A stretch of 64,000 nucleotides of DNA from positions 23,901-87,900 of the forward strand of contig WJJZ01000010.1 of NCBI GenBank assembly GCA_014729395.1, given 5' to 3'. The notes under the pieces were generated by a model. That model was not told the origin of the DNA and made no database searches. It saw only the letters and a program-made list of their open reading frames with translations. Positions within the stretch are counted from its first letter, which is position 1. The number at the start of each line of letters is the position of its first letter. This stretch comes from Candidatus Magasanikiibacteriota bacterium. Its GTDB lineage: Bacteria > Patescibacteriota > Patescibacteriia > Magasanikbacterales > UBA922. This document shows, one piece after another, positions 1 to 31,392 of the stretch. Position numbers and translations under genes: made by a program.

Positions 1-509
1 TTGAGTTGCATAAACTACTATCAAAAGATGATTTATTACTACAAACAGAAAAGAGAATAAAGCAAACTATATATCTACCTTTGTACGGAAGAGATAAGAC
101 AGTTTTTAAAAAAAGTGGTTTGAATCAGTGGAATGCAGGAGGAAGAGATCGACACCCTAATGAAGTCTATATTCCTATCCCAGCAGAAATTCATAAAAAC
201 TTTCCTGGATTTTTTCCAGGTAGAAATATTTCATTTTCTCTTAAATTACCAAATGGAGAAAAAATGAAATCAAAAGTCTGTCAGGACAACAACAAAGCCC
301 TCATGTCATATTCTAATAGAGAGCTTGGAGAATGGATTTTAAGAGACGTCTTGGAATTAAATGAGGGAGAGCTTTTGACCTATGAAAAGTTACAAACCTT
401 AGGGGTTGATTCCGTAAGAATTGACAAAATTAATAATTCTGAATTTGAAATAAATTTTTCCAAGACAGGAAGTTACGAAAAATTCAGAAGTACTTTTCAA
501 GTTAAGTAA
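1..509 (+). CDS. Restriction endonuclease, C-terminal fragment (ORF open to the left window edge; B3/EcoRII-N-like DNA-recognition domain, NgoFVII/BfiI-like)
   Basis: Frame is open from nt 1 and the first in-frame start is TTG at nt 6. The LNQWNAGGRDRHPNEVYIPIP motif is recalled from memory as resembling NgoFVII/BfiI-family C-terminal domains. It lies tail-to-tail with a C5-MTase and next to vsr. Family assignment is from memory, not a search. Confidence 0.4.
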   Translation, partial: ELHKLLSKDDLLLQTEKRIKQTIYLPLYGRDKTVFKKSGLNQWNAGGRDRHPNEVYIPIPAEIHKNFPGFFPGRNISFSLKLPNGEKMKSKVCQDNNKALMSYSNRELGEWILRDVLELNEGELLTYEKLQTLGVDSVRIDKINNSEFEINFSKTGSYEKFRSTFQVK

Positions 510-517
510 ATCAGCAA

Positions 518-2083
518 CTACTCTATAGCTTTTTTAATTTGTAATGCAATCGATTTTACTACTGGCACACTGACTGAATTTCCAAACTGTTTATATAGCG
601 CAGAATCAGACATATTCTTTGGCAGTTTAAAATCCATTGGAAATCCTTGAATTCTGGCACATTCAAGTGGTGTTAGTTTTCTAATTCCTTTTTTATCTCT
701 GATGATTGGAACATTGTGCCCTCCCATACCCATGTTAGCCGTAAGTGTCGGACAGACTCCTTTTTTATTTTCACGCACATATTTTCTTCGCCACTGGTAT
801 ACCGTTTCTCTGCTTTTAACTTCATCTTTTAACTTTTCATAAAGTGGTTTTCCATTATAATAGTATTTTTCATCCACTTTTTCTTCAAGTAAATCAGTGA
901 TTTTTTTTGTAAGTTTCACAGTGCCAGGAAAGTTAAATTTTTCATAGTGTTTTTTATCCTTGAAGCCAACAATATAAATTCTTTCCCTATTTTGAGGAAC
1001 ATTCCCATATTCCATGCTATTCAAAACTTTTGATTTTACATGATAACCAAGATCTTCAAGTGTCTCTAATATGATTCTAAATGTTTTTCCCTTATCATGT
1101 CCTTTTAGATTTTTCACATTTTCAAGCATAAACCCCATTGGCTGTTTTTCTTTCAAAATACGAGCAACATCATAAAACAAATTTCCCCTCCCTTTTTCAT
1201 CATCAAACCCCTGTCTATAACCAGCAATCGAGAAAGCTTGACATGGAAATCCCCCGAGTAAAAAATCAAAATCAGGAAGTTTTTTTTCATTTATCTTTTG
1301 TATATCCTCAACGAACAATTTTGTTCCATCAAAATTTAAATCATACGTATCTTTACATTGTGATTCAAAATCATTTGCAAAAACAGTTTCAAAACCAGCT
1401 TCTTCAAAACCTAACCTTATTCCCCCCACTCCTGCAAATAAATCGATTGTTTTGAAAAGTTTTGTTTTTGGTAACTGTTTTCCAAAATCTCTAATAATTT
1501 TTACTACAACCCCTTGTACTTCAACTTCTTTACGAAACATCGGTAACAAATTTTGATTTGCTGGTTGCAGTCTAAATTTATTTTTTTCACGGTATATTTT
1601 TTTAAGCGTCGCCTCATCTTTATCTATCAAAGCAACAACGGTCTGTCCATTGTCAGCAGAATCTTGTTTCTTTAAAACTACAACATCACCATCAAAAATT
1701 CCATCTTCAACCATACTATCACCGGCAACTCTCAAAGCGTATAGTTGTTCTGGATCAAAATAAGTATCTCTAGCTATGTTAATAGTTTCGCCCTTCGTCT
1801 CAAGAGCTTCAATTGGCTGACCAGCAGCGATTGTACCAACAAGTGGAATATCTATAGAATCCACTTTACCAGGTTTTCTGACACCAAGACCCCGTGTGGC
1901 ATTTTCATCTTTAGTAATGTATCCTTTTTCGATCAACGCATTTACATGTTGATAAACACCCGACAAGGCCTTCAACTTTAGATGTTTCCTCAACTCCTCA
2001 AAAGTTGGCGAGAAACCTTTTTTTTCTATAAATGACTCGATGTAATCTAAAATTTGTTTTTGTCTTTTTGTAAGATTTGGCAT
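518..2083 (-). CDS. LexA-like repressor (wHTH + S24 self-cleaving peptidase) fused to DNA (cytosine-5)-methyltransferase
   Basis: Residues 1-200 align end-to-end with LexA: LTKRQ..GYI wHTH, IPLVGTIAAGQPI with the Ala-Gly site, GDSM Ser and ATLKK Lys. Residues 205-521 carry C5-MTase motif I DLFAGVGG, IV GFPCQAFS, VI ENV, VIII QNRER and X GNSVSV. Confidence 0.85.
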   Translation of the reverse strand: MPNLTKRQKQILDYIESFIEKKGFSPTFEELRKHLKLKALSGVYQHVNALIEKGYITKDENATRGLGVRKPGKVDSIDIPLVGTIAAGQPIEALETKGETINIARDTYFDPEQLYALRVAGDSMVEDGIFDGDVVVLKKQDSADNGQTVVALIDKDEATLKKIYREKNKFRLQPANQNLLPMFRKEVEVQGVVVKIIRDFGKQLPKTKLFKTIDLFAGVGGIRLGFEEAGFETVFANDFESQCKDTYDLNFDGTKLFVEDIQKINEKKLPDFDFLLGGFPCQAFSIAGYRQGFDDEKGRGNLFYDVARILKEKQPMGFMLENVKNLKGHDKGKTFRIILETLEDLGYHVKSKVLNSMEYGNVPQNRERIYIVGFKDKKHYEKFNFPGTVKLTKKITDLLEEKVDEKYYYNGKPLYEKLKDEVKSRETVYQWRRKYVRENKKGVCPTLTANMGMGGHNVPIIRDKKGIRKLTPLECARIQGFPMDFKLPKNMSDSALYKQFGNSVSVPVVKSIALQIKKAIE

Positions 2084-2175
2084 ATTATATTTTTGACTGA
2101 TTACACTACTTGGTACTATAATATATATTATACCGAAAATTAACAGAATAAAAAAGCTCTAATTATCCACACTCC

Positions 2176-2589
2176 ATGGCCGACTGCTTTACAAAAGAAA
2201 AAAGGAGTGAAGTAATGTCGAAAATAAGAAGCAAAGAGACTGAAATAGAAAAAATGGTATTCAGACACTTGAGAAAAAATAAAATTTATTTTCAAAAGCA
2301 CTATAACAAGGCTCCTGGCAAACCCGACATTGCACTACCCCAAAAAAAGAAAGCTGTATTTATTGACGGCGACTTTTGGCATGGCTGGCAATTTTCAAAG
2401 AAAAAAAGAAAACTGCCCAAAAAGTATTGGTTACAAAAGATTGAAGGCAATATCAAGCGTGATAAAAAAAATCGCGCTAAGCTTAAGCGGGATGGGTGGA
2501 AAGTTTTAAGGGTTTGGGAGCATCAATTAAAAAAAGAGGGGGGAAAATATCTGGAAAAAATTACTAAATTTTTAAAAAATTCAATATGA
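2176..2589 (+). CDS. vsr: Very short patch repair endonuclease Vsr (T:G mismatch endonuclease partnered with m5C methylases)
   Basis: TKEKRSEVMSKIRSK N-terminus plus PGKPDIALP and FIDGDFWHGW motifs characteristic of Vsr; divergent from the C5-MTase. Confidence 0.8.
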   Translation: MADCFTKEKRSEVMSKIRSKETEIEKMVFRHLRKNKIYFQKHYNKAPGKPDIALPQKKKAVFIDGDFWHGWQFSKKKRKLPKKYWLQKIEGNIKRDKKNRAKLKRDGWKVLRVWEHQLKKEGGKYLEKITKFLKNSI

Positions 2590-2595
2590 AAAAAT

Positions 2596-3492
2596 ATGAT
2601 TACCTCTCACTATGCGTTCTCAGATGACTCTTGTCATGTCAATGGAAGATATAATAGCCTTGCTCTGGTCAGCCTTCAAAAAAAAGACCTAGAAGCAATT
2701 TCGAATTCATTTGTGGAACTACTTAATGAGTCTGGAATAAAAAAAGAATTTAAATGGGAAAAAGTAAAAAATGCAAAATATCGTTTAGCAGGCGAGAAAA
2801 TTATAAATTTAGTATTTAAATATCAAGCAAAATTAAGAATAGATGTTGTTATCTGGGATTTGGAAGATCAGCGTCATAAAAACATAAAAGGTTGTGATGA
2901 TGCAGAAAATTTAGTTAGAATGTATTATCATTTGGTTTCAACAACTCTTTCACGAAAATGGCCAGTGGCTAATAATTGTTGGCGGTGGCATCCAGACAAA
3001 CAATCTTCTGTATGTTGGAATTTATTGCAGGATTGTATAACTACAAAAAAACATCATCGCACTGCGGATTTATTAAATCAAAATCCAAATTTTGAACAAG
3101 TTAATCTAAAAAGTGTAATACCATCGGAATCATGTAAATATCCATTGATACAGCTAGCAGATTTATTTGCTGGAATGGGCTCATATTCTTATGGCCACAA
3201 TGAATTATATAAAATTTGGAAAAATCAAAATACACGACAAATATCCATGTTTGATGTACCAAAACATAAATTTAGCAATGGAGAAATGGAAAAATTCACT
3301 TTGTTGAGTAAATTTGATAAAATATCTAAAGAAAACAAATTAAAAATTGCCTTACTATCAACCTGCGGATTAAAATCACATAATCCGAACTGTTTTGTTA
3401 ACTTTTGGCCGTACACTCCACAACACAAGTTTGACAAAGCACCAACGAAAATTAGAATGTGTGATTGTTATCGAAAAGATTCACCCCTTTAA
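2596..3492 (+). CDS. DUF3800-family protein
   Basis: Size about 300 aa and a QLADLFAG motif typical of DUF3800. Embedded in the R-M/Mrr cluster. Confidence 0.45.
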   Translation: MITSHYAFSDDSCHVNGRYNSLALVSLQKKDLEAISNSFVELLNESGIKKEFKWEKVKNAKYRLAGEKIINLVFKYQAKLRIDVVIWDLEDQRHKNIKGCDDAENLVRMYYHLVSTTLSRKWPVANNCWRWHPDKQSSVCWNLLQDCITTKKHHRTADLLNQNPNFEQVNLKSVIPSESCKYPLIQLADLFAGMGSYSYGHNELYKIWKNQNTRQISMFDVPKHKFSNGEMEKFTLLSKFDKISKENKLKIALLSTCGLKSHNPNCFVNFWPYTPQHKFDKAPTKIRMCDCYRKDSPL

Positions 3493-3532
3493 ACCTTCTC
3501 CCTCTATAATTAGAAAAAATAAATAATAAAAT

Positions 3533-4429
3533 ATGTCAATGCCAAAATTTGAAGAAACTATGCTACCAATACTCAAAGTTTTACGAAACGAAAAAGTTAT
3601 GTCTATGCAAGAACTAGCTGACGAACTCTTAGAAAACTACTTTAACTTAACAGAAGAAGAAAAGAAAGAGACTGTCTCAAATGGGTACAGTCGCTTTTTT
3701 GATCGTGTCAGCTGGGGGAGAACATATTTAAAAAAGGCCGGCTTATTAGAACAACCAGAGAGAAGCAAAGTTAAAATAACAAAAGAAGGTATAAAGGTTG
3801 TTTCATCTGGGATAGATGCAATTGATGTAAATTTTTTAAATCAGTACCCTTCGTTCATCGCTTTTTTAGCAGGAGGTAAACAAAAAACAAAACAAGAGGT
3901 GGGAGAAGCTATCATAAAGCAATTTTCTCCACAAGATATGGTTGATTTAGGTTTTCAAGATATCCAAGAAACATTAAAAAGCGATCTTTTGGAAAAGTTG
4001 TATAGTACAAATCCCTACTTTTTTGAAAAGGTGGTTTTAATTTTATTTCAAAAAATGGGGTATGGAGATTTTCAGGAAACATCAAAAACTGGAGATGGCG
4101 GTATAGATGGCATAATTAGTCAGGATAAATTAGGGCTAGAAAAAATATTTATTCAAGCAAAAAGATATGCTGAAGATAACAAAGTTAGAGAACCAGCAAT
4201 TAGAAATTTTATAGGTGCGATGAGTCGCGACGTTAGTAAGGGTATTTTTGTTACAACATCCACCTTTGATGAAGCAGCTGTTAAGAAAGCACGAGACGCA
4301 AACCATAAAATAATTTTGATTGATGGAGAAAAATTGACAGAATTGATGATAAAAAATAGTGTTGGCGTTCAAGTTAAAACGGTATATCAAGTAAAGGAAA
4401 TCGATAATGATTTCTTTGAAGAAGGGTAA
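3533..4429 (+). CDS. mrr: Mrr-family type IV (modification-dependent) restriction endonuclease
   Basis: N-terminal winged-helix region followed by the Mrr catalytic core: GDGGIDGII, IFIQAKRY, GIFVTTSTFD and ILIDGEKL. Confidence 0.8.
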   Translation: MSMPKFEETMLPILKVLRNEKVMSMQELADELLENYFNLTEEEKKETVSNGYSRFFDRVSWGRTYLKKAGLLEQPERSKVKITKEGIKVVSSGIDAIDVNFLNQYPSFIAFLAGGKQKTKQEVGEAIIKQFSPQDMVDLGFQDIQETLKSDLLEKLYSTNPYFFEKVVLILFQKMGYGDFQETSKTGDGGIDGIISQDKLGLEKIFIQAKRYAEDNKVREPAIRNFIGAMSRDVSKGIFVTTSTFDEAAVKKARDANHKIILIDGEKLTELMIKNSVGVQVKTVYQVKEIDNDFFEEG

Positions 4430-12344: not shown

Positions 12345-14924
12345 ATGATCCAATTTACCGGATCTCCGGTTTCACAATCATTTTCCAACAACGCCGGGAT
12401 ACTTAACGATCCACTTTTTTTCTATGCAATTATAGCTGTTGTCAGCATATTCATATTTCTATCATTTCTTTTCATTTTAAGAGCTTTATTACGGTTTAAA
12501 TCCAGACAAAGCAAAGCATTTAATCGAGTTGTACTGCAAATAACCGTACCAAAAGAAAAAAAATCTGAGGGTACCGGCGGCCAAGGTTCTCAAGAAGACA
12601 GACTGGAACAAATAAAAGAAGAAATAGGTCTGACTGAAACGGTTTTTGCGGCTATTGCCGGTATAAAGCCACAGGGAGGCATCAGTAGCTGGCTGCGCGG
12701 CAGAAACGACCACACCAGTTTTGAGATGGTAATGCATGAAGGTTTGATATACTTTTATGTTTCCGTTCCCGACAGAATGCATAGCTTCATTGAACAGCAA
12801 ATTCATGCTCAATACCCTTATGCTCATATTGAAAAAATGAGTGATTATAATATTTTTTCAAAAAACAGTTCTATTGTCGGAGCATATCTAAAAAGTAGCG
12901 CCCCGGCCGTTTTCCCGCTAAAAACATACAAATCCATGGAAGCCGACCCTCTATCGACCATTCTCAACGTCTTGGCGAAAGTCAGAGAAAATAACAGCTC
13001 GGCTGCCATTCAATTTACGGTCAGACCGGCGAATAAAAACTGGCGCAGCAAAGGAGTCAGCATCGTAAGAGAAGTAAAAAAAGGAAAAAAATTCGAAGAC
13101 GTAGTATCCGGCTCCAAATTTATGAAGGCCCTGAAAATAGTTGGCCAAGGAGTTGGAGAGCAAGTAAAAAGCCCGGAAACTCTTCAGAGAGAAAAAGACA
13201 AAGATCATTACCAACTTTCCGCCATGGAAGAAGAGATGCTAAAAGGCATTGAGGAAAAAATATCCAAAGGTGGAATGCAAGCTACAATCAGGCTTATAAG
13301 TGTATCAGACGATGAAAGTACCGCTCGATTGAATTTAGACAATCTAATAAATGCCTTTTCTCAATTTAATTTGTATAGATATGGAGCCAGTTTTAAAGCG
13401 ATTGTACCCAAAACCCAGTCAAAACTGATCAGAGACTTTATTTACCGATCCTTTAGTGAAAAATACAACATGATTCTAAATACGGAGGAAATGTCCAGTT
13501 TATGGCATTTACCTCTTCACTCTACCGAAGCACCAAATATAAAGTGGCTAACAGGTCGAAAGGCTCCCCCACCCCCGAATATACCGACAGAAGGACTTTT
13601 AATCGGTTTTGTAGAGTATCGAGGACAAAAAACAAATATTTATATGAAAGAAGCCGATAGACGCCGTCATATGTATTTAATCGGTAAGTCCGGTGGTGGT
13701 AAATCCGTATTTATTGCCAAAATGGCTGTCCAAGATATCCATAATGGCAAGGGCGTCTGTGTGGTAGATCCTCATGGTGATTTGGTAGAATATGTTTTGA
13801 GTCACATTCCAAAAGAGAGAGCTGACGATGTTATTATTTTTGATCCTTCCGATGTGGAGCGCCCGATCGGTCTAAACATGCTAGAGGCAAAATCTGAAGA
13901 CCAAAAAGATTTTGCGGTGCAAGAAATGATTTCCATTTTTTACAAACTCTTCCCTCCTGAAATGATCGGCCCCATGTTTGAACATAATATGCGAAATGTC
14001 ATGCTGACTTTGATGGCTGATTTGAAAAATCCGGGAACTGTAATTGATATTCCTCGCATGTTTACGGATGACGAATATGTAAAAAAATATTTGGCAAAGC
14101 TGAAAGATCCGGTTGTACGAGCGTTTTGGGAAAAAGAAATGGCAAAAACAAGTGATTTTCATAAATCAGAAATGCTTGGTTATCTTATTTCCAAAGTCGG
14201 CCGTTTTGTGGAAAATGAAATGATGAGAAATATAATGGGCCAGCAAAAATCGGGTTTTGACTTCCGAGAAGTAATGGACCAAAACAAAATATTGCTTGTG
14301 AACTTAGCCAAAGGTAAAACCGGAGAAGTTAATGCCAAACTGCTTGGCCTGATTGTTGTAGCAAAACTGCAAATGGCCGCTTTGGCAAGAGCTGATATGC
14401 CCGAAGAACAAAGAGATGATTTTTATTTATATATAGATGAGTTTCAAAACTTTGTTACTGATTCCATTTCCACTATCCTCTCTGAAGCCAGAAAATATAA
14501 ACTAAATTTAATTATCGCCCATCAATACATGGGCCAGTTGACAGATGATAAAGGACGAGCTGATATTAGAGACGCAGTCTTGGGTAATGCCGGTACGATT
14601 TGTTCAGCCAGGATAGGTCCGGACGACGCTGAAATACTGGCAAAAGAATTTGCTCCGACCTTTGGTTCCTATGATCTTTTGAATGCTCCCGAATATTCTT
14701 GGTATACAAAGATGTTAATTGATAATACAGCCTCCAAACCGTTCTTAATGCAAACTTTCCCACCGGAAGAAGGTAGTACAGAGCTCGGCTCGGCCATCAA
14801 AGAATTATCAAGATTAAAATTTGGTCGAGACCGTCGTATTGTTGAAGCGGAAATAATGGATCGTACCAAAATCGGACAGCCCGAAAGCCAAGGCAACACA
14901 GAAGCGGCAGAAGCCAGCCTGTGA
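12345..14924 (+). CDS. VirD4/TraD/TraG-family (FtsK/HerA superfamily) P-loop ATPase with N-terminal TM segment
   Basis: Walker A GKSGGGKS, Walker B LYIDEFQNF, an N-terminal TM helix, and size 859 aa. Matches what is usually annotated as a type IV secretion system DNA-binding domain protein in CPR genomes. Confidence 0.6.
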   Translation: MIQFTGSPVSQSFSNNAGILNDPLFFYAIIAVVSIFIFLSFLFILRALLRFKSRQSKAFNRVVLQITVPKEKKSEGTGGQGSQEDRLEQIKEEIGLTETVFAAIAGIKPQGGISSWLRGRNDHTSFEMVMHEGLIYFYVSVPDRMHSFIEQQIHAQYPYAHIEKMSDYNIFSKNSSIVGAYLKSSAPAVFPLKTYKSMEADPLSTILNVLAKVRENNSSAAIQFTVRPANKNWRSKGVSIVREVKKGKKFEDVVSGSKFMKALKIVGQGVGEQVKSPETLQREKDKDHYQLSAMEEEMLKGIEEKISKGGMQATIRLISVSDDESTARLNLDNLINAFSQFNLYRYGASFKAIVPKTQSKLIRDFIYRSFSEKYNMILNTEEMSSLWHLPLHSTEAPNIKWLTGRKAPPPPNIPTEGLLIGFVEYRGQKTNIYMKEADRRRHMYLIGKSGGGKSVFIAKMAVQDIHNGKGVCVVDPHGDLVEYVLSHIPKERADDVIIFDPSDVERPIGLNMLEAKSEDQKDFAVQEMISIFYKLFPPEMIGPMFEHNMRNVMLTLMADLKNPGTVIDIPRMFTDDEYVKKYLAKLKDPVVRAFWEKEMAKTSDFHKSEMLGYLISKVGRFVENEMMRNIMGQQKSGFDFREVMDQNKILLVNLAKGKTGEVNAKLLGLIVVAKLQMAALARADMPEEQRDDFYLYIDEFQNFVTDSISTILSEARKYKLNLIIAHQYMGQLTDDKGRADIRDAVLGNAGTICSARIGPDDAEILAKEFAPTFGSYDLLNAPEYSWYTKMLIDNTASKPFLMQTFPPEEGSTELGSAIKELSRLKFGRDRRIVEAEIMDRTKIGQPESQGNTEAAEASL

Positions 14925-29621: not shown

Positions 29622-29819
29622 TTACTTTGTACCAAGGAAACCAGGCCAACCGCCCTTTTTCTTCCAAACATCTGAATAGGTTTGGTGTGGACCAGACGGG
29701 AGACGGAGGTCCTGTTTGTAGCCTTTGATATATCCTCTAGAGGTTTTAAACCCCAAAGCCTGGGCAGCTTTGGAAGCTTCTTCCCAAGTTTCGTAGAAAC
29801 TAATTATTTTTTTACCCAA
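29622..29819 (-). pseudogene. Frameshift-separated fourth copy of the helicase C-terminal repeat
   Basis: Encodes GKKIISFYETWEEASKAAQALGFKT..GGWPGFLG, identical in pattern to repeats 1-3 of the upstream helicase. Separated by a +1 frameshift in a G3 (vs G2) run near 29835. Confidence 0.5.
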
Positions 29820-31392
29820 GAAACCAGGCCAACCGCCCTTTTTCTTTCCAGACCTCGGAGTAACTATTATTCGGGTCAGATGGAAGACGGAGGTCTTTTC
29901 TGTAGTGTTCTTGGTATTCTGTTTTAGTTTTAAACCCCAAAGCCTGGGCAGCTTTGGAAGCTTCTTCCCAGGTTTCGTAGAAACTAATTATCTTCTTACC
30001 CAAGAAACCAGGCCAACCGCCTTTTTCTTTCCAGACCTCGGAGTAACTCTTATTCGGGTAAGATGGAAGACGGAGGTCTTTTCTGTAGTGTTCTTTGTAT
30101 TCTGTTACAGTTTTAAACCCCAAAGCTTGTGCAGCTTTGGAGGCTTCTTCCCAGGTAGGGTAGAAATTCCGAGACAGCATAACATCAACATAGTCGAGAA
30201 TCCCGACAACCTCTTCCAAGTACTCATCATAGAACACCTTAAAGCCGGTTGAGACCTCTCTCACATCGGTGTCATAATCATCCCGAAGGCCGACAGAAAC
30301 CAGCTGTCCGATGAATTCCAAGCGCCGGTAGGTGCCGACAAAGTCCATGACAACCACTTTTTGCTTGTCTCTGGTCTTGCGCAGACCTCGACCGAGCTGC
30401 TGGTACCAGACTACGGCGCTTCTGGTTGAACGCAGGAAGACGATCAGGTCAACAGTGGGGATGTCAATTGCTTCATTGAACATATCCACCGTGAGTAGTG
30501 TCCGAATCTCTCCTCTTTGAAACGCTTGGAAGCGCTCTTTGAGAGTCTTTGTCTTGAGGCCCGAATGGTATGACACAGCCTCGGGAAAGTATTTGTTGAC
30601 TCTCCTAAGGTGGCTGATCGAACGACAGAAAATGACCGCCTGTTTGTCAGCAACCGACTGCTCGGCTTTGACAGTTTCGGCAATCGCTTCCAGTTTTTCA
30701 ACTAGAAAGAGATTTTTGTCAAGTTTTGTCTTTGAAATGGAGCGGTCCTCTTGCCTGACTCTCTCGATGAGATCTTGTATAACCTCTCTTGAGATGTTGT
30801 CGGTCAAGAGCCGGTACTCCACCTCAGCCAGCCACTCGTTGTCAGCGAGTGCCTCTTTCAAGCCGTAGGAGTATACCTCGTCTCCAAAGATATCCCTGAT
30901 ATCAAGACCATCTCCCCTGAAAGGAGTAGCGGTCATACCAAGCATGAACCGGGGTGTGAAGTAGTCGATGATTTCCTTGTAGGTCTCTGCATGAGAATGA
31001 TGAGCCTCGTCTACGATGACAAGAGAAAACTCATCCTCTTCCAGCTCCCAAACAAGGCTTTCCTGCATGGTCTGAAAAGTACTAAGGAGCACCGTGGCAT
31101 CCTTATCTTCTTTGACCACGCCATTGACAATCGAGATGCCGGGCTTGTCCTCAAGACTGAAGAGAGCCTCTTCAAACTCCTGTTTGGCCTGATACAGCGG
31201 GTCGGTCATATGAAGGATAAAGAGAACTTTACCTCCATAATTTTCCAACCAATAGCGAATGATGTTGCCGGCGAGCACTGTCTTGCCCAAGCCGGAGGCC
31301 ATGGAAATTAGAACAGTTTTGAATCCACTGCTCACGGCCTCAAGGATAGCCGACTTAGCTTCTTCCTGATAAGGTCTGAGTGTTTTCATCAC
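29812..31392 (-). CDS. SF2 (DEAH/ResIII-type) helicase with C-terminal tandem 60-aa repeats
   Basis: Motif I MASGLGKT, motif II VIVDEAHH, motif III TATP, motif VI QQLGRGLR; followed by three repeats of ETWEEASKAAQALGFKT..EY..YRKDLRLPS.PN.SYSEVWKEKGGWPGFLG. Confidence 0.8.
   Translation of the reverse strand: MMKTLRPYQEEAKSAILEAVSSGFKTVLISMASGLGKTVLAGNIIRYWLENYGGKVLFILHMTDPLYQAKQEFEEALFSLEDKPGISIVNGVVKEDKDATVLLSTFQTMQESLVWELEEDEFSLVIVDEAHHSHAETYKEIIDYFTPRFMLGMTATPFRGDGLDIRDIFGDEVYSYGLKEALADNEWLAEVEYRLLTDNISREVIQDLIERVRQEDRSISKTKLDKNLFLVEKLEAIAETVKAEQSVADKQAVIFCRSISHLRRVNKYFPEAVSYHSGLKTKTLKERFQAFQRGEIRTLLTVDMFNEAIDIPTVDLIVFLRSTRSAVVWYQQLGRGLRKTRDKQKVVVMDFVGTYRRLEFIGQLVSVGLRDDYDTDVREVSTGFKVFYDEYLEEVVGILDYVDVMLSRNFYPTWEEASKAAQALGFKTVTEYKEHYRKDLRLPSYPNKSYSEVWKEKGGWPGFLGKKIISFYETWEEASKAAQALGFKTKTEYQEHYRKDLRLPSDPNNSYSEVWKEKGRLAWFLG

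Follow-up and report, generated by a model that had tools for sequence, protein, structure and literature searches.

A LexA repressor fused to a C5 cytosine methyltransferase in Patescibacteria: a candidate damage-responsive autoregulator of a Type II restriction–modification cassette

The stretch analysed here (the window) comprises 64,000 nucleotides of contig WJJZ01000010.1 (positions 23,901 to 87,900) from a Candidatus Magasanikiibacteriota bacterium (assembly GCA_014729395.1), and near its start it encodes a LexA repressor fused in frame to a C5 cytosine DNA methyltransferase (518..2083, minus strand; an unbroken open reading frame (ORF) of 521 codons). The fusion gene belongs to a small defence island. 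On one side is the 3′ part of a convergent restriction endonuclease gene of the NgoFVII type (1..509, plus strand; PF20731, NgoFVII_C), which is cut by the window start and ends 8 nt from the stop codon of the fusion gene; full-length homologs in two loci fetched for comparison (L021 and L029; L numbers denote such loci throughout) are 378–389 aa long. On the other side, divergent from the fusion gene, is vsr (2176..2589, plus strand; Pfam and NCBIfam matches), encoding a very-short-patch T:G mismatch endonuclease, and the same divergent arrangement is present at L007, L020, L021, and L052. Following vsr, positions 2596-4429 encode a DUF3800 protein and then a full Mrr (Mrr_N plus Mrr_cat). 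Mrr is a methylation-dependent nuclease beside a C5 methyltransferase, so the specificities of the two must be compatible.

The first-pass annotation, made from the letters of the window, had proposed that a complete LexA is joined to a complete C5 methyltransferase across 518–2083, with an Ala-Gly cleavage bond, the Ser and Lys of an S24 peptidase, and the methyltransferase motifs all in place; profile searches bear out each of these points. Pfam divides the 521-aa product into LexA_DNA_bind (residues 1–65, E 1.9e-16), Peptidase_S24 (residues 80–194, E 2.3e-28, a significant hit in the very segment, residues 80–200, for which such a search had been proposed), and DNA_methylase (residues 210–518, E 2.4e-97). 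The NCBIfam lexA equivalog model TIGR00498 matches end to end (186.2 bits against a cut-off of 110.95; model positions 1–202 of 203), and the dcm model TIGR00675 scores 356 bits on the same protein. All features of the gene lie on the minus strand: the LexA winged-helix DNA-binding domain (PF01726) at 1889..2083, the S24 catalytic and dimerisation domain (PF00717) at 1502..1846, the inter-domain linker (residues 199–210) at 1454..1489, and the C5 methyltransferase domain at 530..1456. The recognition helix of the winged-helix domain, ALSGVYQHVNAL, belongs to the class that pairs with TTCGG-type operators (see below).

The landmark peptides were located as follows (numbering includes Met1): IPLVGTIAAGQPI, containing the predicted self-cleavage bond Ala87–Gly88 (codons 1820..1825); VAGDSM, with Ser123 (codon 1715-1717); and ATLKK, with Lys161 (codon 1601-1603), the latter two residues forming the S24 catalytic dyad. 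In the methyltransferase half these are GFPCQ with the catalytic Cys281 of motif IV (codon 1241-1243), ENV at 321–323, QNRER, and GNSV. The C5 motif set is complete, comprising motifs I (FxGxG), IV (PC), VI (ENV), VIII (QxRxR), and X (GNS), with the target-recognition domain between motifs VIII and IX. Among sequences of solved structures in the PDB, residues 2–198 match LexA proteins and residues 209–517 match M.HhaI over its whole length; the latter is the closest solved structure to the methyltransferase domain (end-to-end alignment, E 2e-61). An AlphaFold model has a mean predicted local distance difference test (pLDDT) score of 80 and contains three confident domains, with low confidence confined to the hinge and cleavage loop, the linker (pLDDT <50 at residues 200–206), and the catalytic loop of the methyltransferase. 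By every sequence-level criterion, the product is both a LexA and a C5 methyltransferase.

A search covering 5.8 billion proteins recovered at least 120 clusters with all three domains. The fusion homologs are 516–561 aa long and 66–94% identical to the window protein; named sources are Parcubacteria, Moraniibacteriota, Paceibacterota, and other Patescibacteria, and the clusters derive from NCBI, JGI, ENA, and Logan assemblies with contigs of up to 744 kb. Ala87, Ser123, Lys161, Cys281, and the methyltransferase motifs are invariant across all 119 full-length C5 fusions, as is the Ala-Gly pair in 24 of 24 aligned C5 fusions (the invariance of Gly88 is read from this 24-sequence alignment). Positions flanking the catalytic sites vary, with D, N, E, S, or T before the Ser and A, T, S, V, or R before the Ala-Gly pair. 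The linker ranges from 9 to 18 aa at 27% identity. A frameshift or an assembly chimera, which had been raised as a possible cause of the junction, would not give a linker of variable length, and the junction is therefore real. In a tree of the methyltransferase half, the 38 fusions all group together as a single clade, which lies among stand-alone orthologs of the Candidate Phyla Radiation (CPR) and DPANN archaea. The fusion is thus no artefact, and the C5 fusions have a single origin in Patescibacteria. Among the 80 viral loci that were kept, there were stand-alone methyltransferase orthologs and no fusions. Two methyltransferases of Candidatus Nanosyncoccus (L030 and L032) are stand-alone, with neither LexA part, operator, nor DnaA-box-like element (see below); their position within the fusion clade indicates that they lost the regulatory module secondarily.

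The genomic setting of the fusion genes is that of restriction–modification (R-M). Whereas stand-alone orthologs have a co-directional layout of methyltransferase (M), restriction endonuclease (R), and in some cases Vsr genes, the R gene of the fusion clade is convergent. In an ORF survey, 36 of 36 complete loci had a convergent ORF whose end lies within ~65 nt of the fusion stop codon, and in most of them the two genes abut or overlap. The partner ORFs, drawn from the fusion loci among L001–L031, L052, L055, and L081–L085, make up seven clusters unrelated to one another. Three of these, with 21 loci between them, match endonuclease families in Pfam (Bsp6I, PDDEXK_5, and NgoFVII_C); the other four had no match in Pfam or NCBIfam, nor did one representative have a match in the PDB. 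In annotated neighbourhoods, the convergent gene encodes a Bsp6I-type nuclease, a PDDEXK_5 nuclease accompanied by a helix-turn-helix (HTH) gene, or an unannotated protein (one locus each). A tblastn search with the nuclease fragment of the window had suggested that most fusions are orphan methyltransferases; this was refuted by the annotated neighbourhoods together with the ORF survey. We regard the fusion gene as the M gene of a Type II R-M cassette in which both the nuclease activity of the partner and its cognate specificity are predicted. Flanking genes differ between fusion loci, as would be expected of a mobile cassette.

Near-identical methyltransferases occur with different partners (L016 and L010; L019 and L031); because sister methyltransferases are paired with different genes, the R gene is replaced quickly while the LexA–M gene persists. 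At L084 (11581-12260), and likewise at L085, a 73-aa HTH_3 gene resembling those of C proteins precedes the convergent PDDEXK_5 nuclease gene, and a cassette of this type would have two separate controllers.

With regard to the target of the methyltransferase, the recognition loops differ from those of M.HhaI and loop I is seven residues shorter, such that the target is probably not GCGC. Assigning specificity by alignment with M.HhaI was given up because the recognition loops are not conserved. Site avoidance within the window was uninformative, with observed/expected ratios of 0.8–1.1 for GCGC, GCNGC, GCSGC, and others. Bsp6I recognises GCNGC. NgoFVII recognises GCSGC (PMC4081073). The partner nuclease families would accordingly suggest GCSGC or GCNGC as the methylation target.

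The fusion gene and vsr are transcribed divergently from a compact control region. The vsr promoter is of the sigma-70 type (TTGACT-18-TATAAT, 11/12 matches; 2093..2122, plus strand). The fusion-gene promoter, on the minus strand, has the -10 hexamer TATAAT (2127..2132), in an anatomy that is conserved across loci, and a weak -35, TTTTTT (2150-2155). The spacer between them is filled by the predicted LexA operator, a direct repeat TTCTG-N6-TTCGG with an 11-bp period (2133..2148, minus strand), which also lies within the 5′ leader of vsr. An alignment of ~30 fusion genes gives a conserved order of TGTGGATAAC, ~8 nt, a -35 resembling TTGatt, a 17-bp spacer, and TATAAT, in which the 17-bp spacer is itself the direct repeat TTCGGT-N5-TTCGGT with a period of 11. 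The near-palindrome GGTACTATAATATATATTATACC, put forward in the first-pass annotation as a candidate operator, is indeed present at 2112-2134, but the conserved element is the direct repeat adjacent to it. The palindrome consists of two back-to-back -10 hexamers (TATAAT at 2117-2122 on the plus strand and 2132-2127 on the minus strand), which explain it, and it is not conserved in related loci where vsr is absent; it was therefore rejected as an operator.

The direct repeat is closely tied to the fusion genes. The fetched loci (~800 kb) contain 18 exact copies of TTCGG-N6-TTCGG, of which 17 are directly upstream of fusion genes. In a scan of 938 kb of locus flanks with a position weight matrix (PWM), each fusion locus had a single score of at least 20, located at the promoter spacer, and no other position reached this value; neither nuclease promoters nor uvrA, 1 kb from the cassette at L081, had a site of operator strength. 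The promoters of 19 stand-alone methyltransferase genes have neither the direct repeat nor the TGTGGATAA box described below. In addition, the repeat varies with the recognition helix: TTCGG-type repeats accompany helices of the form S(T/G)(I/V)(H/Y)(E/Q)H, and TTTCTA-type repeats accompany STAH(Y/H/F)(Y/H), in a pairing that is seen in fused genes and recurs in unfused relatives. This co-variation is the best available evidence that the direct repeat is the operator of the LexA domain, and comparative evidence thus points to an autoregulatory site in the fusion gene’s own promoter. A scan of metagenomes for TTTTCGGT-N5-TTCGGT returned 120 matches, three of which were fusion promoters and the rest chance occurrences on unrelated contigs, often high in G+C or rich in repeats. 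A second perfect TTTCTA-type site, at L012, lies inside a small ORF and has no promoter, and is probably due to chance.

A DnaA-box-like element, TGTGGATAA(C) or the variants TTTTCCACA and TGTGGAAAA, is situated beside or overlapping the -35 at the promoters of fusion genes and of R-M-linked lexA genes. In the window it is TGTGGATAA (2163..2171, minus strand), which lies upstream of the -35 and is the DnaA-box consensus TTATCCACA in reverse complement. Its position is ~-76 to -88 from the start codon (L001–L031, L052, L081–L084), and it is also found at the R-M-linked lexA loci L286, L288, L290, L292, and L293. There are 19 exact copies of the TGTGGATAA box within 130 nt upstream of 35 fusion genes, versus seven in the other ~375 kb. 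The element may couple expression to DnaA and replication initiation.

The association between this LexA lineage and R-M genes extends well beyond the C5 fusions. When the LexA half alone was searched against 1.84 billion representative proteins, its closest relatives (45–77% identical) matched over residues 1–200 and proved to be N-terminal modules of proteins of 270–890 aa. All 53 contain both LexA domains and retain the Ala-Gly pair, Ser, and Lys without exception. At the C-terminus they have DNA methyltransferases, with every major family represented: N6_N4_Mtase (30), Eco57I-type (7), D12/Dam-class (5), N6_Mtase (5), MmeI-type (4), and C5 (3). One member of the representative library, P0121 (777 aa), combines a LexA module, a C5 domain, and a partial Eco57I-type methyltransferase domain in one protein.

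A profile built from these LexA modules also retrieved many unfused Patescibacteria LexAs of 195–211 aa. Eight of them, on longer contigs, were examined, and in seven cases lexA is the first gene of an R-M operon. L286 encodes LexA, an N6_N4 methyltransferase, and a HinfI-type nuclease in one direction; in L287 and L289, lexA overlaps an Eco57I/N6 methyltransferase gene, with a convergent DraIII-type nuclease gene in one of the two; and in L293, lexA precedes an N6_N4 methyltransferase gene. In L288 (6001-7412) and L290 (6001-7414), lexA is followed by a gene for a DpnI-type methylation-dependent nuclease without any methyltransferase, apparently a Type IIM/IV restriction enzyme under a LexA-type repressor. 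L292 (5001-7123) has lexA, vsr, and a C5 methyltransferase gene in one direction and a convergent gene for a 282-aa protein, and so is an unfused version of the gene set in the window, although its methyltransferase is only 33% identical to that of the window. The eighth case, L291, has a lexA-rhuM-uvrA cluster beside uvrB and uvrC. A period-11 repeat is present at the gene’s own promoter in all eight. The DnaA-box-like element (TGTGGATAAC, TTATCCACA, or TTTTCCACA) was found in all seven promoters of R-M-linked unfused lexA genes, and was absent from the uvr-linked lexA promoter of L291. The lexA stop and the M start overlap by 4–17 nt in L287 and L289, which offers a simple route to repeated in-frame fusion.

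The first-pass annotation was thus correct that the fusion is real, but the picture of a single fusion gave way to that of a broad association of LexA with R-M genes, to which this fusion belongs. The occurrence of LexA fused to, or placed before, R-M genes of every major type suggests that genome methylation in these organisms is tied to the DNA-damage response. We tentatively propose, at somewhat short of even odds, that a Patescibacteria LexA lineage has been recruited as a general R-M controller, either as a separate first gene or by repeated N-terminal fusion, rendering methylation and restriction damage-responsive, with the DnaA-box-like element adding a link to replication. The window gene would then be one stable and widely spread product of this recruitment. 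At L293, 4 kb from the R-M-linked lexA, is a gene (449-1090, minus strand) for a second, divergent winged-helix and S24 protein of 213 aa with NCG at the cleavage position, GHSM, and NIKKF, which could be the genuine SOS repressor of that genome or a prophage repressor.

For the window gene itself, the reading we favour, at a probability of roughly 60%, is that the product is a bifunctional regulatory methyltransferase, a self-cleavable autorepressor that couples expression of the methyltransferase (and Vsr) to DNA damage. From the observed architecture, conservation, R-M context, and conserved operator co-varying with the recognition helix, we infer operator binding, RecA-dependent cleavage, and a physiological outcome as follows. 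A dimer of LexA domains, held together by the S24 domains, would bind two TTCGG-like half-sites 11 bp apart. The fusion protein would repress its own synthesis and probably that of Vsr, as judged from the placement of the operator in its own promoter spacer and, in the window, in the vsr leader. If the fusion protein behaves like LexA, its self-cleavage at Ala87–Gly88 would be triggered by RecA filaments on damaged DNA; the invariance of this bond and of the dyad in >170 fusion proteins spanning five methyltransferase families, with variable neighbouring positions, suggests that self-cleavage is used. Cleavage would remove the DNA-binding domain, lift repression of the M gene and vsr, and leave an S24–methyltransferase fragment. 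The convergent nuclease gene, with its own promoter and without an operator, would be unaffected. The net outcome would be a shift from nuclease towards methyltransferase and Vsr during damage and repair, a Type II counterpart of damage-induced restriction alleviation.

Several points weigh against this interpretation. The operator scan covered the locus flanks, and these genomes may have a second lexA elsewhere, or further operators before recA or other repair genes. Induction of the M gene only, as envisaged for the window, fails in L286, where lexA, M, and the HinfI-type R gene are co-directional, and in L288 and L290 the gene preceded by lexA is that of a DpnI-type nuclease. The window operator has one mismatch, and the window -35 is weak. 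Cleavage fragments of E. coli LexA are degraded, and cleavage of the fusion protein could destabilise the attached enzyme rather than release it. Furthermore, the recognition loops are unlike those of M.HhaI and the window shows no site avoidance.

The strongest competing view is that the fusion protein is the cell’s general SOS repressor, with the direct-repeat box also governing recA, uvr genes, and others, and with the methyltransferase a passenger acquired through the lexA/M overlap. We consider this unlikely, if far from negligible. It would account for the full-length pass of the LexA equivalog model, and the overlaps in L287 and L289 would ease such a fusion by stop-codon loss. No second lexA was found in the window; neither a second methyltransferase nor SOS genes were among the ORFs examined there, and for this reason the window cannot reveal a regulon. 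L291 also speaks for this view, as a close unfused relative with the same operator class heads the uvrA cluster, which indicates that the LexA lineage can act as an SOS repressor. On the other hand, no period-11 repeat was found upstream of uvrB or uvrC in L291, and, within the flanks scanned, sites of operator strength occur at the protein’s own promoter only, uvrA of L081 included among the genes without one. Fusion neighbourhoods are not syntenic, as expected of a mobile cassette, and all fused relatives, along with seven of the eight sampled unfused ones, are attached to R-M genes. A role in general SOS control is compatible with the self-cleavable autorepressor reading and does not exclude it.

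It is improbable, in our assessment, that the S24 domain is a dimerisation module only, so that the protein would be a constitutive autorepressor like M.SsoII whose self-cleavage has no physiological role. An operator with two half-sites does require a dimer, and cleavage is not required in regulatory methyltransferases that have an N-terminal DNA-binding domain (PMC3978073, PMC2760811, PMC12707154). However, the Ala-Gly pair, Ser, and Lys are invariant in the C5 fusions and in 53 fusions to other methyltransferases while flanking positions vary, and fixed catalytic residues amid variable neighbours argue for selection on catalysis rather than on fold.

We assign very little probability to a further alternative, in which cleavage is a suicide or abortive-infection switch: the fragment would be degraded, methylation would drop, and the stable nuclease would kill the cell. 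LexA fragments are protease substrates in E. coli, the N-terminal fragment here would end in ...IAA, resembling the ClpX-recognised VAA end of E. coli LexA, and the cassette lies among other defence genes (DUF3800, Mrr). Against this, cleavage would at once derepress synthesis of new full-length protein, and the repair function Vsr shares the control region. Finally, although unfused lexA-then-M operons with overlapping stop and start codons exist in related organisms, the notion that an assembly chimera or a sequencing frameshift joined two genes into the long ORF is dismissed, in view of the same fusion in >119 independent protein clusters from several assembly sources, on contigs of up to 744 kb, the varying sequence and length of the linker, and the monophyly of the fusions.

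The proposed autorepressor shares features with several known systems. In M.SsoII, M.Ecl18kI, M.EcoRII, and M.MspI, an N-terminal HTH of ~70 residues represses the M promoter (PMC3978073, PMC2760811, PMC12707154). The fusion protein resembles these in having an N-terminal DNA-binding module on a flexible linker and a putative operator at its own promoter, where repression is again the predicted effect. It differs in that the ~70-residue HTH has no protease, whereas the module here is a 200-residue LexA with a cleavage site and a Ser/Lys dyad. Also, the SsoII/Ecl18kI operator is placed between the M and R promoters, which diverge and overlap, and switches between them, while here the R gene is convergent and without an operator, and the divergent partner is vsr. 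On sequence grounds, the fusion protein falls outside the SsoII/Ecl18kI group by two of its defining features, the type of module and the placement of the operator. Compared with canonical LexA, it has the full-length equivalog match, the cleavage site, the dyad, and a site at its own promoter; LexA boxes that are direct repeats with an 11-bp period also occur in Alphaproteobacteria (GTTC-N7-GTTC; PMC8565304). Unlike canonical LexA, it has a 310-residue enzyme at its C-terminus and, in the available sequence, an operator only at its own promoter, and its lineage is attached to R-M rather than repair genes in seven of eight unfused cases.

As with C proteins, the repressor or activator gene may come first in an R-M operon, a layout shared by L286, L287, L289, L292, and L293. 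In C proteins, the DNA-binding unit is an Xre-type HTH dimer that recognises palindromic C-boxes, and there is no signal-sensing protease, in contrast to the LexA winged helix and direct repeat seen here. The proposed protection of unmodified sites after damage, with the balance moved away from restriction, is akin to Type I restriction alleviation (PMC12707154), although the latter operates by ClpXP degradation of HsdR, and the mechanism suggested here would operate by derepression of the modification enzyme through self-cleavage of its repressor. The methyltransferase half is 55–74% identical to stand-alone orthologs in M–R(NgoFVII-type)–Vsr cassettes of CPR bacteria, DPANN archaea, Firmicutes, and viral contigs, but these lack the LexA module, the direct repeat, and the TGTGGATAA box, and their R gene is co-directional.

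The first-pass annotation had regarded a methylase bearing an S24 module as undescribed. This holds for the searchable literature, in which we found no paper linking LexA or S24 to a DNA methyltransferase or to R-M control; the 2017 study of SOS in Patescibacteria by Sanchez-Osuna, Barbe, and Erill lay outside this comparison. A 2025 review of R-M regulation lists HTH-fused methyltransferases without mention of LexA or S24 (PMC12707154). In public databases, by contrast, the fusion is common under the automatic labels ‘LexA’ or ‘cytosine methyltransferase’, and is therefore catalogued, yet not interpreted.

In Type II R-M systems, methylation must stay ahead of cleavage. Known ways of ensuring this are C proteins, promoters sensitive to methylation, antisense RNAs, and the fusion of a small HTH to the methyltransferase. 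To our knowledge, no mechanism among these responds to the condition of the chromosome; a link between DNA damage and the M:R balance is established for Type I systems, and we know of no Type II equivalent. A methyltransferase with a cleavage-competent LexA as its repressor domain would make the M:R balance depend on DNA damage, which is when unmodified sites arise through repair and recombination. The presence of this module on all DNA methyltransferase classes and at the head of many R-M operons points to a lineage-wide strategy in Patescibacteria, organisms with very small genomes and few regulators. In these genomes, the annotation ‘LexA’ is not by itself a reliable sign of a classical SOS regulon.

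Beyond the defence island, the rest of the window is ordinary Patescibacteria chromosome (35% G+C) with dnaX, dnaB, pyrG, and cell-envelope genes. It also encodes a VirD4/TraG-like type IV coupling protein (12345-14924) and a ResIII/SNF2 helicase with C-terminal integrase-repeat (INT_rpt) units (29812-31392), which hint at mobile-element remnants.

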